From contig CANHFH010000002.1 in NCBI GenBank assembly GCA_947459825.1, forward strand, positions 17,150 to 81,149: a DNA stretch of 64,000 nt, in the 5' to 3' direction. Positions 16,637-23,001 of the stretch are shown piece by piece. The stretch's first letter is position 1, and each line of letters opens with the position of its first letter. The translations under genes and the position numbers were made by a program. Source of the DNA: Pseudomonadota bacterium (GTDB lineage Bacteria > Pseudomonadota > Gammaproteobacteria > Steroidobacterales > Steroidobacteraceae). The notes below the pieces were generated by a model. It saw only the letters and a list, made by a program, of their open reading frames with translations, was not told where the DNA came from and made no database searches.

Positions 16637-17689
16637 GTGACCGTGACCTTGCGCCGTTGGCTGCTCGCCGTCGTGGTACTGGCCTGCGTCGCCGGCATCG
16701 TCGGCTCGCGTGCGCAGCAGGCCGAGATCACCATCCGCATCGCTTTCCTCGCTTCGCAGGACGACGAGGACTACATCGGCGCGGTGGCGTTCCGCGAGGC
16801 GCTGCGGCAGCGGCTCGGCGACCGCGTCGCCGTGCAGATCTATCCGTCCGGGCAGTTCTGCGGCAACGAGCGCGAGTGCATGGAGGCGCTGCAGAGCGGC
16901 ATCCTCGAGATGCACCAGACCACCATCGGCGGCCTCGCAGGGCTCTACGGGCCGGCGCAGGTGTTCGATCTGCCGTACACCTTCGCCGACGACGCCGTGG
17001 CCGAGTGCGTGTTCGACGGCGAGGTGCCGCGGGCGATGGGCGAGGCGATCCTGCAGCAAGGTCTCGGGCTGCGCCTGATGGCGGTCGGCAACACCGGCGG
17101 CTGGCGCAGTTTCGCGATGACCGAGCGGCGCATCACGCGCGTCGCGGACCTCGCGGGGCTGCGCATCCGCACGCTGCCGTCGGCGCTCGAGCAGGAGATG
17201 GTGCGCGAGCTCGGCGCGAGCCCGATGGCGCTGCCGTTCTCGGAGATCTACACCGCGCTCGGCGCCGGCATGCTCGCCGGCACCAAGAACAGCATCCAGG
17301 ACGTGATGGGGATGAAGTTCGACGAGCACATCCGGCACCTCTTCGTGGACCGCCACGCCTACATGGCGTCCTTCTGGTGGTATTCGGAGCAGGGTTGGCA
17401 GCGCTTGCCGCCCGATGTGCAGCAGGCGGTGCGCGAGGCGTTCGTGGCGCTCGCCGCGGCGACGCGCCGCGCGGCCAAGGACCGCGAGGCTCCGGCGCTC
17501 GCCGCGTTCGAGACCGGCGGCGGCACCATCGACTACATCACGGATGCGCAGCGCGCCGAGTTCCGCGCCGCGACCGCACCGTTGCGCGAGTGGTATGCGT
17601 CGCGCTACCCCGGCGACTGGCTGCGTCGCGTCGATGACGCGGTCGCCGCTTGCGGCGCGCGTGCCGCGCCCACCGATCCATCGACCTGA
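16637..17689 (+). CDS. TRAP periplasmic solute-binding protein (DctP family)
   Basis: GTG start, signal peptide, and DctP-like blocks (EALQSGILEMHQTT, GLRIRT, YTALGAGMLAGTKNS). The gene order Q-M-P is inverted relative to the common P-Q-M. Confidence 0.8.
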   Translation: MTVTLRRWLLAVVVLACVAGIVGSRAQQAEITIRIAFLASQDDEDYIGAVAFREALRQRLGDRVAVQIYPSGQFCGNERECMEALQSGILEMHQTTIGGLAGLYGPAQVFDLPYTFADDAVAECVFDGEVPRAMGEAILQQGLGLRLMAVGNTGGWRSFAMTERRITRVADLAGLRIRTLPSALEQEMVRELGASPMALPFSEIYTALGAGMLAGTKNSIQDVMGMKFDEHIRHLFVDRHAYMASFWWYSEQGWQRLPPDVQQAVREAFVALAAATRRAAKDREAPALAAFETGGGTIDYITDAQRAEFRAATAPLREWYASRYPGDWLRRVDDAVAACGARAAPTDPST

Positions 17690-17703
17690 AGGAGACGACC
17701 GTC

Positions 17704-18150
17704 GTGAGAGTGCTGTTCGTGGATGCAGGGAACTATTGCCGCTCACCGGTGGCCGAGATCGTGGCGCGTGCGATGGCCGTGCGCAGCGGGGCGGCGGGCT
17801 GGTCCTTCTCTTCGGCCGGCCTCAAGGACAAGCACGCCGGCGACTCGGCGGATCCGCGCTCGATCGCCGCCTGCGCGGCGCGCGGCTACGACCTCACCGC
17901 GTTCCGCTGCCGTGAGATCACCGCGGCGGACTTCGCGGCCCATGACCTCATCCTCGCCATGGACCGCGACAACGCCGCGCAGCTCGAGGCGCGTCGGCCC
18001 GCGGGCAGCGCCGTGCCCGTCCGTCTCTTCCTTGACGACCGTGAGGTGCCGGACCCGTACTACGGCGGCGATGACGGGTTCGGGACGATGATGTCGCAGA
18101 TCGAGGAGGGCGTAAGGCAGCTCTTGGGCGGTGCCGGTCCGGGGGGCTGA
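17704..18150 (+). CDS. low-molecular-weight phosphotyrosine phosphatase homologue with P-loop nucleophile Cys replaced by Asp
   Basis: The N-terminus VRVLFVDAGNYCRSPVAE compares with canonical V(L/I)FVCxGNxCRSP. The codon gat at the nucleophile position was read directly (gtg ctg ttc gtg gat gca ggg aac tat tgc cgc tca). The general-acid motif VPDPYYG is conserved. Confidence 0.75.
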   Translation: MRVLFVDAGNYCRSPVAEIVARAMAVRSGAAGWSFSSAGLKDKHAGDSADPRSIAACAARGYDLTAFRCREITAADFAAHDLILAMDRDNAAQLEARRPAGSAVPVRLFLDDREVPDPYYGGDDGFGTMMSQIEEGVRQLLGGAGPGG

Positions 18151-18230
18151 GCACGGCCGACGGCGGCGCTCCACGCGGCCGCCCGGGGGGGGCGCGATGG
18201 TCTCCGGCCATATGCGCTATATTGATTCCA

Positions 18231-18787
18231 TGGGAGATATCACGGTACTGCTGGGCCGGGCCCGCGACGGCGACCGGGGGGCGTTCGACGGCCTCTTCGA
18301 TGCCCTGTACCCGGATCTGCGGCGCATCGCCCATGCGCGGCTCGCCTCGCACCAGCGCAACACCATGCTCAACACCACGGTGCTGGTGCACGAGTGCTTC
18401 CTCAAGTTCACGGCTGCCGATCGGCTGACGCCGAAGGACCGCTCGCACTTCCTGGCCTACGGTTCGCAGATGATGCGGTCCATCATCGTCGATGTCGCGC
18501 GGGCCCGTCAGGCGGAGCGGCGGGGCGGCGACGCCGCGCACACCACGCTCAACACCGATGTGCGCGACGGCGTGCCCGCGGGCGAAGACGAGATCATGGA
18601 TGTGCACGAGGCGCTCGAGCAGCTCGCCGGGCTCGATGCGCGCCTCGCCAAGGTGGTCGAGATGCGCTACTTCGGCGGTCTGCGCGAAGCCGAGATCGCC
18701 GAAGCGCTCGGCGTCACCGAGCGCACCGTGCGCCGCGATTGGGAGAAGGCGCGACTGCTGCTGGCGGCGGCGCTGCGCACGCGCTGA
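18231..18787 (+). CDS. ECF-type RNA polymerase sigma factor (kinase-associated, TIGR02999/ECF43-like from memory)
   Basis: The N-terminus is MGDITVLLGRARDGDRGAFDGLF. Region 2 reads TTVLVHECFLKF and region 4 reads VVEMRYFGGLREAEIAEALGVTERTVRRDWEKARLLL. Confidence 0.85.
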
Positions 18788-18823
18788 GCGCCGTCTTCCG
18801 CCGTCCGGCGTCCGACCGATCGA

Positions 18824-18856
18824 CGGCGCCGCATCGCGCGAGCGCCGTTTTTTTTT
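18824..18856 (+). terminator. rho-independent terminator after the sigma gene
   Basis: A GC stem GGCGCCGC...GCG(CGA)GCGCC is followed by a run of 9 T (18848-18856). Confidence 0.6.
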
Positions 18857-18981
18857 CGCTCCGATGTCCGGTCGTGCCTTGCCGTTCCGTATTCACTGGC
18901 AAGCAGGCGTTGTGCGGCGGTCGATGGACCCGCGACGCCGGGCGATCCGTCGCCATAACGCAAAGATATCGGAGGTCCGTG

Positions 18982-19194
18982 ATGCCCCTTCTACCGCGCT
19001 TGATGCCCCAGTGGTCCGTGCTCGATCGTCTGCTCGATCAGGCCCTCGACCTCGCCCCCGAGGCGCGCGAGCGCTGGTTGGAGAGCCTCGTGGCCGAGGA
19101 TCTCGCCGTGCGCGCCACGCTGCGCCAGCTGCTCGATGTGCAGTGCGGCATCGAATCCGGTCTCTATCTCGAGCGCCTGCCGAAGGTCGCTTGA
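18982..19194 (+). CDS. 70-aa stand-alone paralogue of the Ser/Thr kinase N-terminal domain
   Basis: ATG 18982 follows GGAGG. MPLLPRLMPQWSVLDRLLDQALDLAPEARERWLESL...TLRQLLDVQCGIESGLYLERLP aligns from residue 1 with the kinase N-terminus MKLLSDLSSQWAVINRLLDEVLALEPSEREAWLDRL...TLRGLLTAQAGIETESFLDTLP, at roughly 40% identity by eye. Confidence 0.65.
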   Translation: MPLLPRLMPQWSVLDRLLDQALDLAPEARERWLESLVAEDLAVRATLRQLLDVQCGIESGLYLERLPKVA

Positions 19195-19214
19195 TGCGCG
19201 GCGCGGCGGAACGG

Positions 19215-19254
19215 ACCTGGATGTCCGCTTCCGCCGCCGTTTTCCGTACTCGTA
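19215..19254 (+). terminator. putative rho-independent terminator after the small gene
   Basis: GGCGGAACGGAC-ctggat-GTCCGCTTCCGCC (one bulge) is followed by GCCGTTTT. Confidence 0.5.
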
Positions 19255-19301
19255 GCTGAGCAGCCGACGAACGGCTTCGCCGAGGTGACCCTTCCGGGGA
19301 G

Positions 19302-19670
19302 ATGATGTCCAGCATCACGAGCCGATCCATCGCACCCGCATCGCTCCATCCGCACCTCCGCAGCGGAGGTGTCCTCCTTTCCCTGATGTTGGCCTTCGCC
19401 GCTGCCAGCCTCTTCGCCGCCGGCCTGGACTCTCCGACGACCAAGTCCGACGGCGTCACCATCCCCTACGGCGACCTCGACCTCAGCACCGTCAACGGCG
19501 CGTTCGAGCTCGAGCGCCGTCTCGTCGAAGCGGCGAGCATCGTCTGCATCGATCTCGACTCGCCCGCGGTGCCGCGCGAGACCTACGACCGCTGTCGCAT
19601 GGACGCGGTCTCGGGGGCTATACTCATCTTGCGTCGACCGCCCTCCGCGGTCGCCGCGGTGACCAGTTGA
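19302..19670 (+). CDS. UrcA-family secreted protein
   Basis: It has a signal/TM segment, then the family hallmark VTIPYGDLDLSTVNGAFELERRLVEAASIVC. Confidence 0.7.
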   Translation: MMSSITSRSIAPASLHPHLRSGGVLLSLMLAFAAASLFAAGLDSPTTKSDGVTIPYGDLDLSTVNGAFELERRLVEAASIVCIDLDSPAVPRETYDRCRMDAVSGAILILRRPPSAVAAVTS

Positions 19671-19735
19671 CCGGCGGGGCGGTCTGTCGCGGGTGATCGA
19701 CCGCGCCGTCATCGCTCCGCGACGGACGGCTAACC

Positions 19736-22534
19736 TTGAAACTGCTCTCCGACCTTTCTTCGCAATGGGCGGTCATCAACCGGCTCCTCGACGAGGTGCT
19801 GGCACTCGAGCCGTCCGAGCGTGAGGCCTGGCTCGACCGCCTCGCCCCCGAACACCATGGCCTGAAGGGCACGCTGCGCGGGCTGCTGACGGCGCAGGCG
19901 GGCATCGAGACGGAGTCCTTCCTCGACACCCTGCCCAGGATGTCCGAGCCGGCCCCCGACCTGAAGCCGGGCGACGAGATCGGCCCCTACCGCATCCTCG
20001 AACGCATCGGCAGCGGCGGCCAAGGCACGGTCTGGCTGGCGCAGCGCGCCGACGGTCAGCTCAAGCGCAAGCTGGCCATCAAGCTGCCGCAGCTCGCCTG
20101 GGCCGAGGGCCTCGCGGCGCGCATGGAGCGCGAGCGGGACATCCTGGGTGCGCTCGACCACCCTTACATCGCGCGGCTCTACGACGCAGGCGTCGACCAG
20201 CGAGGTCGACCGTTCCTCGCCATCGAGTACGTCGAGGGCGTCAACCTCGACCGGTACTGCGACGAGCAGCGTCTCGACATCCGGGCGCGGGTCGCGCTCT
20301 TCATGAACATCCTGGAGGCGGTGCAGTACGCACACACCGCGCTCGTGGTGCACCGCGACCTCAAGCCGGCCAATGTGCTGGTCAACGCCAAGGGCGAGCC
20401 GAAGCTGCTGGATTTCGGCGTCTCCTCTCTGGTCGCCCAGTCCGTGGTCGAGGGCGAGGATGCCGCGACGCAGACCGCGACCCGCGCCATGACGCCGCGC
20501 TACGCGAGCCCGGAACAGATGGAGGGGAAGCGGCTCGGCGTCGGCTCCGATGTGTATTCGCTCGGGGTGATGCTGCATGAGCTGCTGAGCGGCGGATCGC
20601 CCTACGCGGTCAAGCGCGGCTCGGTCGCAGAGTACGAGCACGCCATCCTCGAAGAAGATGTGCGCGCGCCGAGTCGGGTGCAGATGAGCGAGGTGATCGC
20701 CTTCGCCCGCGACTCGACGCCGAGGCGCCTCGCACGCCAGCTGCAGGGCGACCTCGATGCCATCGTGCTGCGTGCGCTGGCCCGTGACCCGCGTGAGCGT
20801 TACGGCTCGGCGCTCGCCCTGCACGACGACCTGCGTCGCTGGTCGACCGGCCGCGCCGTACAGGCCCGGCCACCGTCGGCCTGGATAAGTCTCCGCAAGT
20901 TCCTGGTCCGCAACCGCCTGATCGCAGGCGGCATCACCGCCGGCGTGGTGGCGGTGATGGTGGCGGCCTTGGTGGCGGTGCAGCAGGCCGGCGTCGCCCG
21001 CGAAGAGGCGCGACGCGCCAACGCCACGCGCGACTTCGTGATGGGCATCTTCAACGACGCCAACCCTGCATTGCATGCCGGGCGCGATGTCACGGTGCGC
21101 GAACTGCTCTCGGCCAACGAGCAGAAGCTCATCGACCGGCTGTCCGGCGACCCGATGCTGCAGGCCGATGTGCTCCATTCCGTCGCGCAGGTCTGGGACC
21201 GCTTCGGCGACTTCAGCCGGGTGGTGGATGTCCACCAGAAGCGCGCATCGCTGCTCGGCAGCAACGGCGCTCCGAACGAGTCGGTGGCGCTCGCCTTGCT
21301 CGAGCAAGGCAAGGCGTTGGCGGTGGTCGAGCGGGTGGGGGAGATGGCCGCCGTGCTCGACCGCGTGCGCGACCAGCTGCCTGTGGAGGACATGTCGCCG
21401 CAGGTGCGTGAGCGCTACGAGTGGCAACGCGGCTGGGTGGCGCTGTATGTCGGCGACCGCCGCGAAGCCAAGGAACACTTCACGCGCTCGGTCGAGGCCG
21501 CGCGGATGTCCGGCGATCTCGCCTCGCAGGTCCGCGCATTGTTCGGGCGCAGCGCGAGCGAGACCTGGGTGAACCGGGTCGCGCCCGACCGCGACCGGGC
21601 TGCGGCGCTGCGTGACCATCGCGAGGCGGTGCAGCTGCTCGAGCGGTCGCAGCTCGACCGCCTGCCGCGTTTCGACCAGCGGTTGCAACTGCTGTCCAAC
21701 CTGTTCTGGCTCGGCGAGTACCGCGAGGGCTGGCCCTTGGTCCGTCAGCAGATGGCGGAATCGGATCAGCTCTACGGCGAGCATCCACCCGTCGCGTCGG
21801 CGCTGCCGTTCTTCTACTTGGCCTATCTGTGGAGGCTCGGTCGTCCGCAGGAGGCGCTCGACTGGATGGCCGCGCGCACGCGCCATCAGCGCGCCTCGGG
21901 GACCTTACCGCCTGGACCGCCCCCCTCGCGTGAGGTCGCGCTGCAGGCGCGATTGTGGCTCGCGGTGGGCCAGCCCGCAGAAGCCCGCGACCTGATCGAC
22001 GGGTGGCGTCGGACGAACCTCGACCCTCCGGTGGGGGACCAGCTGCGCATCGGCGTGACCGAGCTCGAGTGGGCGCAGGCCCATTCGACGCCCGCCGAGG
22101 TGCTTCGGCTGTTGGCCGTCAAGCCGTGGTCCGCGCTCACCGACGACGACGACAGCGAGTGGCCGCTCTATCCGCTTTGGCACCGAGGGCTTGCTCTGGA
22201 GCGTCAGGGTGACAGCGCGACGGCCATCCCGCTCCTCGAGACGGCCGTCCGTAAGGCCCATGACGTGTTCGGGGAGGGGCACCCGCGGGTGGCGTTGGTC
22301 CGGCTGTCGCTGGCCTTCGTCCGTTGGCGCGCGGGCGCCGCGGAGGACGCGACCGGGCGGAACATCCTCGCTACGAGTCTGGCGGGGATCGTCACGGACC
22401 TCGAGCAGGGCATGCCGCCCGAGCACCCGGCCTTGAGGGAGGCTCGCGTCTTTTTGGCGCATATCCGTGGCGCGTCCGCCACAGAAGACGACATCCGACG
22501 CTGGAGGGACCCCACCGCCACCTTCTACCCCTAA
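19736..22534 (+). CDS. membrane-anchored Ser/Thr protein kinase with long C-terminal helical-repeat (TPR-like) region
   Basis: The TTG start is supported by alignment with the small paralogue. Kinase motifs present: GSGGQGTVWLA, AIK, HRDLKPANVLV, DFG, SPEQ. One TM segment reads LIAGGITAGVVAVMVAALVAV, followed by a C-terminal domain of about 520 aa. Confidence 0.9.
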   Translation: MKLLSDLSSQWAVINRLLDEVLALEPSEREAWLDRLAPEHHGLKGTLRGLLTAQAGIETESFLDTLPRMSEPAPDLKPGDEIGPYRILERIGSGGQGTVWLAQRADGQLKRKLAIKLPQLAWAEGLAARMERERDILGALDHPYIARLYDAGVDQRGRPFLAIEYVEGVNLDRYCDEQRLDIRARVALFMNILEAVQYAHTALVVHRDLKPANVLVNAKGEPKLLDFGVSSLVAQSVVEGEDAATQTATRAMTPRYASPEQMEGKRLGVGSDVYSLGVMLHELLSGGSPYAVKRGSVAEYEHAILEEDVRAPSRVQMSEVIAFARDSTPRRLARQLQGDLDAIVLRALARDPRERYGSALALHDDLRRWSTGRAVQARPPSAWISLRKFLVRNRLIAGGITAGVVAVMVAALVAVQQAGVAREEARRANATRDFVMGIFNDANPALHAGRDVTVRELLSANEQKLIDRLSGDPMLQADVLHSVAQVWDRFGDFSRVVDVHQKRASLLGSNGAPNESVALALLEQGKALAVVERVGEMAAVLDRVRDQLPVEDMSPQVRERYEWQRGWVALYVGDRREAKEHFTRSVEAARMSGDLASQVRALFGRSASETWVNRVAPDRDRAAALRDHREAVQLLERSQLDRLPRFDQRLQLLSNLFWLGEYREGWPLVRQQMAESDQLYGEHPPVASALPFFYLAYLWRLGRPQEALDWMAARTRHQRASGTLPPGPPPSREVALQARLWLAVGQPAEARDLIDGWRRTNLDPPVGDQLRIGVTELEWAQAHSTPAEVLRLLAVKPWSALTDDDDSEWPLYPLWHRGLALERQGDSATAIPLLETAVRKAHDVFGEGHPRVALVRLSLAFVRWRAGAAEDATGRNILATSLAGIVTDLEQGMPPEHPALREARVFLAHIRGASATEDDIRRWRDPTATFYP

Positions 22535-22650
22535 ATATCCGACAGTTTGTCGGGGTGTCGATGTCCGGTTCCGGCAGGTCAGTCCGTATCCTACGGTGAA
22601 GATTGACTAAATCCGTGATTACCGTCACATCATCGATTCGGAGATGCCCC

Positions 22651-22893
22651 ATGAACAACCGCCGCACCGCCTCCCGCCTCGCCACTTTCGCCGCCCTTGC
22701 CGTCGCCTCGTTCAGCGGCGCTTCGGCCGATGCCGCCACCCTGACCATCGCGGGTCCCGGCAACTCGGGCATCTCCTTCGTCATCGTTCTGGGAGGTACG
22801 GCCTTCACGATCTCATTGACGGGTGTCACGCAGTCGGGCGGTGCGGGGATCTGGATGCGCACGGAGCCCACGCAGTCGGGCGGCGCGGGCTGA
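22651..22893 (+). CDS. small secreted protein of unknown function (80 aa precursor)
   Basis: ATG follows GGAG. The signal peptide is MNNRRTASRLATFAALAVASFSGASADA. Third-position GC is high. The C-terminal motif TQSGGAG is duplicated (acgcagtcgggcgg.gcggg twice). Confidence 0.5.
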   Translation: MNNRRTASRLATFAALAVASFSGASADAATLTIAGPGNSGISFVIVLGGTAFTISLTGVTQSGGAGIWMRTEPTQSGGAG

Positions 22894-23001
22894 TCAGACC
22901 CTGAACGGCGCGGCCCGTCGTCGTCTCCGACGGGTCGAGCGCTCTTCCGGTATCCTCCGCGCGCCGGCATCGTCCGGCGCGCGGAGTGTCTACCGACCGA
23001 C

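Follow-up and report, generated by a model that had tools for sequence, protein, structure and literature searches.

A stand-alone paralogue of the N-terminal helical domain of a PknS-like kinase, encoded directly after an ECF43-like sigma factor gene in Steroidobacteraceae

The DNA analyzed here (the window) is a stretch of 64,000 nucleotides (nt) from a Steroidobacteraceae genome (assembly GCA_947459825.1, contig CANHFH010000002.1, positions 17,150 to 81,149). Downstream of a gene for a sigma factor of the extracytoplasmic function (ECF) type, and upstream of a gene for a transmembrane Hanks-type Ser/Thr kinase, it contains a small open reading frame (ORF) of 70 amino acids at 18982..19194; coordinates throughout are positions in the window, and all features of the locus lie on the + strand. 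The small ORF is a stand-alone paralogue of the N-terminal helical domain (N-domain) of the neighboring kinase and, as judged from its substitution pattern across relatives, is a genuine translated gene under purifying selection. The order of genes is LMW-phosphatase-like (low-molecular-weight phosphatase) gene, ECF sigma gene, small ORF, urcA, and kinase. The pairing of an ECF43 sigma factor with a kinase is a known kind of module; what appears to be new is the extra, recurrent component that consists of the N-domain standing alone.

An earlier note on this DNA described the ORF as starting with ATG behind a GGAGG and as aligning with the N-terminus of the kinase, and the coordinates, signals, and BLASTP comparison agree with that description. 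The Shine-Dalgarno sequence GGAGG occupies 18971..18975, 6 nt 5′ of the ATG, and residues 1–70 of the small ORF align with residues 1–70 of the kinase (19736..19945) with 32 of 70 positions identical (46%), 64% positives, and 0 gaps (E 1e-17). At the level of sequence, this likeness is far beyond chance. Leu17, Leu18, Asp19, and Leu22, which are invariant in the family, are all kept in the small ORF. A homologue search restricted by length returned 21 protein clusters of 73–92% identity, mostly 70 amino acids long and without exception ending in ...LPK(V/F/I)A, and scans of genomes and metagenomes added further loci with identity down to 67%. The related contigs carry the names of Steroidobacteraceae metagenome-assembled genomes (MAGs), several of them from lake metagenomes. 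One Steroidobacteraceae-type locus (L035, NZ_JBIPLW010000040.1), with a small ORF of 84% identity, stands in a MAG labeled Flavobacterium sp., and this contig is probably mis-binned.

The earlier note had proposed conservation of the small ORF as a check, and the comparison of 24 related loci bears it out. All 24 keep the 70 codons, the ATG, and the TGA, with no indels or internal stops, and in all 24 the ORF ends at the domain boundary, so that no linker-fused Hanks kinase domain follows. The Shine-Dalgarno sequence is GGAGG across these loci, or AGAGG in the most distant clade. Pairwise Nei-Gojobori estimates of the ratio of nonsynonymous to synonymous substitution (dN/dS) put the small ORF at 0.20 (with dS reaching about 1.4), the opening 70 codons of the kinase at 0.23, and the sigma gene at 0.07, whereas for the DNA of the small ORF the two remaining reading frames yield 1.44 and 2.37. 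Variable sites are distributed over the three codon positions as 32, 17, and 61, the third position thus varying in 61 of 70 codons. Because of this codon-position pattern, and because a dN/dS of 0.20 stands against off-frame ratios of 1.44 and 2.37, the small ORF is for practical purposes not a chance ORF in GC-rich DNA, nor a pseudogene or decaying fragment, nor the product of purely RNA-level constraint; the small ORF also has no match in Rfam, and a scan of 17500–23000 against that database gave nothing relevant. The start signals of the two paralogues differ, since the kinase begins with TTG (or GTG) and has no Shine-Dalgarno sequence comparable to that of the small ORF. As the translation start of the small ORF is much the better one, an excess of the free module would be favored.

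The domain that the two proteins share is best understood through PknS of Xanthomonas citri. The kinase of the window (932 amino acids, 19736..22534; Pkinase 9.4e-40, TPR_12) is PknS-like and comprises the N-domain, a kinase domain at residues 85–363, and a C-terminal region with TPR matches. Its residues 8–369 align with residues 6–362 of the PknS crystal fragment (9EED_A, residues 1–364; E 6.6e-56), and this alignment spans the N-domain, whereas PknB-type kinases align only from residue 84 onward. In PknS, the initial 81 residues are invisible in the crystal and are predicted by AlphaFold2 (AF2) to form three to four antiparallel helices with a flexible linker to the kinase domain; the paper assigns them no function (PMC13147305). 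An AF2 model of the small ORF from a 56-row alignment has helices at residues 8–23, 26–35, and 38–59 and a short one at 62–65 (mean predicted local distance difference test score, pLDDT, 69; predicted template modeling score, pTM, 0.43), and these three to four predicted helices match the AF2 picture of PknS 1–81.

Profile searches place the domain with kinases of this kind, and family and fold searches matched it to no other family. A profile built from the stand-alone copies matches 1356 proteins at E<=1e-3, and among the top 150 matches the long proteins (about 800–1200 amino acids) are matched at their N-termini. The N-domain profile also aligns with 9EED over residues 2–55 in register, but at an E of 0.04. 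The small ORF has no Pfam or NCBIfam match, and a search with 56 N-domain sequences at E<=5 gave only noise; a Foldseek search of the PDB with its AF2 model, which is of moderate confidence, returned nothing below E 3. The protein contains no H-x3-C-x2-C zinc motif, having a single Cys (C55) and no His, and it resembles neither the anti-sigma family models nor, in fold, the solved class I anti-sigma domains. In three of the loci compared (L062, L065, and L021), the kinase domain behind the N-domain is split into two tblastn segments covering different parts of the domain, which may reflect frameshifts or assembly errors.

The sigma gene (18230..18787) encodes 185 amino acids from a conserved MGDIT start and matches both PF07638 (3.5e-45, 154.6 bits against a cut-off of 21.1) and TIGR02999 (1e-51, 175.4 bits against a cut-off of 126.15). 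Its region 2.2 reads LNTTVLVHE, with the TT present and the acidic DAED motif absent, and the TT is conserved in all 41 of the related sigma factors listed. A region 2.2 that lacks a DAED-type acidic motif and instead carries a conserved Thr, with QTTA/STTA as consensus, is the hallmark of ECF43 (PMC13147305; PMC8999054). None of the neighboring products matches an anti-sigma family in Pfam or NCBIfam, and a Hanks-type kinase is co-encoded. By these sequence features, the neighboring sigma factor is of the ECF43-like type and is predicted to be phosphorylation-controlled.

The association between this type of sigma factor and the N-domain extends well beyond the window. Among 58 N-domain loci that lie outside the clade of the window and have enough upstream sequence, 44 are preceded on the same strand, at a distance of no more than 400 nt, by a TIGR02999-like sigma gene. 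In the canonical layout, then, a kinase gene directly follows the sigma gene with its N-domain end foremost, and the small ORF fills the slot in which that layout has the kinase N-domain. The genome of the window itself has a second canonical ECF43 pair on another contig (C116:~3640-6450, locus L003), with a QTTA sigma factor and an N-domain kinase that follows after 41 nt without any stand-alone copy. This pair provides an internal comparison and is a possible source of cross-talk.

A promoter-like motif connects the small gene to its neighbors. One conserved motif, GATGTCCGG-N15-CCGTAT, recurs in front of three units: the small gene, the operon of urcA and the kinase, and a gene whose small product is secreted. 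It emerged from the comparison of the intergenic regions on either side of the small ORF, which share GATGTCCG(G/C)-N15-(C/G)CGTA(T/C) at 18865–18892 and 19222–19249. The first copy (P1, 18865..18892) reads TGTCCGG-N15-CCGTAT with a GA before it and lies 117 nt 5′ of the small-ORF ATG; the second (P2, 19222..19249) reads TGTCCGC-N15-CCGTAC and lies 5′ of urcA; the third (P3, 22562..22589) lies just 3′ of the kinase stop. In the whole genome, the strict form of the motif occurs 6 times, against 1–5 times in shuffles, and three of these six matches fall within 3.7 kb at this locus, all on the + strand and all intergenic. All six also have the preceding GA, although it lay outside the search pattern. 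The other three strict matches, at C17 (-) 14824, C23 (+) 28794, and C162 (+) 3482, precede a 128-amino-acid membrane protein and two near-identical genes whose products appear by eye to be HlyD/CvaA-type secretion proteins; these genes may be further members of the regulon.

Comparison across lineages points to the neighboring sigma factor as the probable reader of this motif. In the 24 related loci, the positions of P1, P2, and P3 and both of their blocks are fixed while the spacer sequence varies, which is the footprint expected of a promoter, and in relatives without urcA, P2 directly precedes the kinase gene itself. The same motif recurs in about ten other lineages, whose sigma factors are only 47–60% identical, where the sigma gene and the N-domain gene have it in the spacer that separates them, and where it also stands before divergent neighbors; there, 34 of 39 matches are within about 110 nt of an end of a sigma gene. 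Because the motif adjoins sigma genes of this kind in so many other lineages, it is probably the cognate promoter of the sigma subfamily, read by the neighboring sigma factor. If the motif is cognate, then everything behind its three copies at this locus, namely the small gene, the urcA-kinase operon, and the gene for the secreted protein, would be sigma-dependent. The last of these (22651..22893), behind P3, encodes an 80-amino-acid secreted protein whose tail consists of repeated TQSGGAG, and a gene of about 69 amino acids is called at the same position in relatives; it is probably a member of the same regulon as the small ORF.

The earlier note had also placed terminator-like hairpins on both sides of the small ORF, at 18824–18856 and 19215–19254, and of these the upstream one stands as a terminator while the downstream one is doubtful. 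The upstream hairpin follows the sigma stop codon, with a stem at 18822–18849 and a run of nine T at 18848–18856 (whole element 18822..18856, from folding and comparison with relatives). Hairpin and T-run are kept in all relatives, and in L049 a compensatory change from GGCGC/GCGCC to GGTGC/ACACC preserves the pairing, which makes the element a credible terminator of the sigma gene. The downstream element (19203..19242) consists of a stem-loop at 19203–19237 (-33.7 kcal/mol for a 71-nt fold, z -2.1) followed by four T only. The -35-like block of P2 forms its 3′ arm, the distant relatives L051 and L052 have no recognizable counterpart, and it may be a weak terminator or an attenuator. A scan for consensus terminators reported neither hairpin, the upstream one being missed since its loop exceeds 8 nt. 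In three relatives (L029–L031), the stop of the small ORF overlaps the start of urcA (TGATG), and there neither the hairpin nor the second motif is found. Since the downstream element is weak, overlaps P2, and is absent in some relatives, insulation on two sides is not a conserved property of the locus. The description of the small ORF as an insulated, independent transcription unit consequently does not hold as given: the gene does have a promoter-like motif of its own, but its downstream terminator is doubtful and in L029–L031 it overlaps urcA.

The arrangement in some relatives suggests how the small gene came about. In part of the clade, the UrcA-family secreted protein gene (19302..19670; TIGR04433 3.7e-11) separates the small ORF from the kinase; it is absent in L036 and L052–L055. 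In the relatives that lack it, some 130 nt intervene between the small ORF and the kinase, and the region resolves into two units of motif, leader, and N-domain. Each unit spans about 337 nt, and the motif stands 105 nt from the start codon in one and 111 nt in the other. The coding parts of the two units are 54.5% identical, whereas the non-coding parts outside the motif blocks reach 44–45%, against 46 +/- 5.5% after shuffling, so that homology of the leaders is not demonstrable. Most simply, and probably, the small gene arose when the 5′ part of the kinase gene, with promoter, leader, and N-domain, was duplicated in tandem, and it was then kept by selection. The insertion, or loss, of urcA would have come after this duplication.

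Stand-alone N-domain genes are not confined to the clade of the window. A second family, of 69–74 amino acids and ending in ...TLPKF/L, comprises 18 clusters at 80–93% identity, mostly from soil-derived Steroidobacteraceae, with dN/dS of 0.14–0.19 at dS of 0.6–0.8. Its members lie directly after an ECF43-like sigma gene and before a DUF4331 gene. In some of these genomes, a full-length N-domain kinase lies about 2.5 kb upstream, past a divergent DUF5122 gene, the layout in L095 (L095:4645-11747) and L097 (L097:5706-11914) being amidohydrolase (-), kinase (+), DUF5122 (-), sigma, small gene, DUF4331, and Big_9. The syntenic spot in L097 has no kinase within 10 kb, and the sigma-small pair is retained. 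The promoter-like motif in L095 and L097 also faces the divergent DUF5122 gene. In one lineage of this second family (L043:4877-5179, and also L073, L076, and L077), residues 1–54 are kept and an unrelated tail replaces the last helix, giving 100 amino acids; this swap may represent a rearrangement or the onset of decay.

Two singletons, P0129 (70 amino acids) and P0152 (69 amino acids), are likewise complete genes directly after a sigma gene, and indeed every stand-alone copy occupies this position. Many other short library matches were not counted as stand-alone genes, being either contig-end fragments with the glycine loop of a kinase or frameshifted kinases; P0128, on an uninformative contig of 556 nt, was also set aside. 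A tree of 56 N-domains groups the free copies of the window type in one clade (99/95) and the kinase N-domains of the same loci in another (98/93). Both clades share a moderately supported node (84/92) with three other kinase N-domains. The second free family is nested elsewhere, beside a kinase. Since the tree places the two free families apart, it indicates that stand-alone N-domain genes arose independently at least twice.

What the small protein does may be approached from what it keeps and what it lacks. Its product is the predicted three-helix module alone, without a catalytic domain; all kinases paired with ECF43-like sigma factors carry this module in front of a flexible linker. The small gene would be transcribed from the same type of motif as the urcA-kinase operon, presumably read by the neighboring sigma factor, and the free module would then take the partner surface normally used by the N-domain of the kinase. 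Because every stand-alone copy is strictly adjacent to a sigma gene, the likeliest partner would be the sigma factor. Binding without phosphorylation would result in competition with the kinase or in buffering of the sigma factor, and since the small gene appears to be sigma-dependent, the outcome would be feedback on sigma activation, most likely of negative sign. We therefore propose that the small protein, a partner-binding module devoid of a kinase domain, attaches to the sigma factor or, with lower likelihood, to the kinase and so exerts feedback on sigma phosphorylation, a proposal that in our estimate has an even chance of being correct. Both the binding of sigma and the sign of its effect are inferred.

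A structural hint comes from L049, in which the sigma gene and the small ORF share a frame and are separated by a single stop. The read-through chain was modeled with AF2 as a fusion in which the stop was replaced by Gly, with 13 other naturally in-frame read-throughs from sigma to N-domain as alignment rows. In this model, built from a 14-row alignment without predicted aligned error (PAE) or a control, pTM is 0.62 with about a third of the chain disordered. The N-domain helices reach pLDDT 85–91, versus 76–80 when modeled alone, with a drop over the last 18 residues. In Foldseek, the sigma part of the fusion fits anti-sigma-bound ECF factors (root-mean-square deviation 11–12 Å) better than holoenzyme-bound ones (21–27 Å), though loosely. 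These values are no more than a weak hint that the N-domain may pack on the sigma factor.

A broader version of the proposal would regard the N-module as an unrecognized sigma-binding domain, either anti-sigma-like or for docking, of which the stand-alone forms would be minimal soluble partners expressed from the sigma factor's own promoters; this we hold to be less likely than not.

Several observations weigh against the proposal that the small protein binds sigma. The fusion model is limited by its shallow alignment, by the missing PAE and control, and by the looseness of the superpositions, and AF2 may give a compact ECF sigma factor whatever the partner. The N-domain could mediate self-association of the kinase or bind something other than sigma. 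The module is absent as a whole from two genomes of this genus and is accordingly accessory. The assignment of the motif to the neighboring sigma factor is only probable, and the genome also carries the second ECF43-like sigma factor. Finally, the direction of the feedback is a guess.

The foremost alternative is that the free N-domain acts as a microprotein on the kinase, pairing with the kinase's own N-domain and altering its oligomerization or activation, in a dominant-negative or a priming manner, without binding sigma. Such pairing would be natural for a paralogue of the helical module on the neighboring kinase, as homotypic association is common among small helical domains, and both stand-alone families have a full-length N-domain kinase nearby in at least some genomes. 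However, the stand-alone copies hold their position after the sigma gene rather than beside a kinase, and L097 keeps its sigma-small pair despite the absence of the kinase from the syntenic spot. Furthermore, the N-domain is found only on kinases coupled to an ECF43-like sigma factor and is absent from the PknB-type kinases, whose alignment begins at residue 84. Given these points, an action directed at the kinase appears unlikely.

A second alternative retains the sigma factor as partner and reverses the outcome. The free N-domain could be a positive adaptor or chaperone that stabilizes the unphosphorylated sigma factor, delivers it to the membrane kinase, or protects the phosphorylated form, and so generates positive feedback. 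The evidence of association, namely sigma adjacency and the shared motif, serves this account as well as it serves competition for the sigma factor, and EcfK proved insoluble when E. coli produced it by itself (PMC13147305), as would suit a protein that requires a partner. Nevertheless, for a duplicate of a domain that the kinase itself carries, competition for that one surface is the simpler reading, and we consider a positive role improbable. That the gene is instead a relic of partial duplication, or has an RNA or leader role in urcA-kinase expression, would agree with its looking like a tandem copy of the 5′ end of the kinase gene, in units of about 337 nt where urcA is lacking, and with the replaced C-terminal third in the L043-type lineage of the second family, but is very improbable against a dN/dS of 0.20 at dS up to about 1.4, the variability of third positions (61 of 70), 24 loci with start, Shine-Dalgarno sequence, and stop kept and with no indels or stops, off-frame ratios above 1, a second independent family under purifying selection, and the lack of an Rfam match.

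Two further features of the locus touch the kinase and the sigma factor. Directly 5′ of the sigma gene in all relatives lies the LMW-phosphatase-like gene (PF01451; 17650..18150), an ORF that overlaps the sigma start region. Its P-loop reads VDAGNYCRS, with an Asp at the site expected for the nucleophilic Cys, and its product may act together with the kinase/sigma module or be catalytically dead. Between urcA and the kinase, the entire 65-nt spacer (19671–19735) is filled by a hairpin of -37.4 kcal/mol (z -2.5) without a T-run, which could limit kinase translation or serve in transcript processing.

The closest characterized systems are EcfK-PknS of Xanthomonas citri and EcfP-PknT of Vibrio parahaemolyticus. 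As in these, the sigma factor of the window is of the PF07638/TIGR02999 type with TT replacing the acidic motif of region 2.2, the adjacent gene encodes a transmembrane Hanks kinase with an N-terminal helical domain of about 80 amino acids, a transmembrane segment, and a C-terminal TPR region, and no classical anti-sigma gene is present. Those systems have two components as described, whereas here a third gene encodes the N-domain alone. Unlike them, the sigma gene here has its own terminator, and one promoter-like motif recurs before the small gene, before urcA and the kinase, and before the gene for the secreted protein. The small ORF also recalls small soluble anti-sigma proteins such as RseA-N, RsiW-N, and NepR, in that its product is small, cytoplasmic, and all-helical and is encoded immediately downstream of an ECF sigma gene. 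It differs from them in having no zinc motif, anti-sigma family match, or Foldseek match, and in being homologous to a kinase domain instead of an anti-sigma family. Moreover, unlike the usual targets of anti-sigma proteins, an ECF43-like sigma factor is thought to be intrinsically inactive until phosphorylated, so that sequestration would not be needed in the usual sense.

In its logic, the arrangement resembles the microProteins of eukaryotes, such as plant LITTLE ZIPPER and the Id-type proteins, which are single interaction domains that titrate their partners and regulate transcription. The small ORF similarly encodes only an interaction domain, duplicated from a larger regulator and predicted to act by titration, and the likeness goes no further than that logic. 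We know of no characterized bacterial microProtein case for a docking module of a Hanks kinase. Full-text literature searches found no description of a stand-alone N-domain protein and no function for the domain, in keeping with the earlier note, whose author knew of no characterized arrangement of this kind.

Control through direct phosphorylation of ECF sigma factors on Ser/Thr, as in ECF43, is a recently established mode of signaling of which two systems have been dissected. The free copy that selection has maintained next to the sigma gene, the type of motif common to it and the kinase operon, and its repeated origin together suggest that the N-domain is an autonomous interaction module, and the 70-residue protein offers a simple reagent for finding the partner of that domain. 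Should the small protein be a competitor for the sigma factor, it would add a feedback element to the ECF43 scheme and would provide a compact orthogonal part for synthetic sigma circuits. If the N-module does bind sigma factors, then ECF43 systems, now defined as lacking an anti-sigma factor, would gain a sequestering or buffering layer, one that in some lineages would have been split off into a separate gene at least twice.

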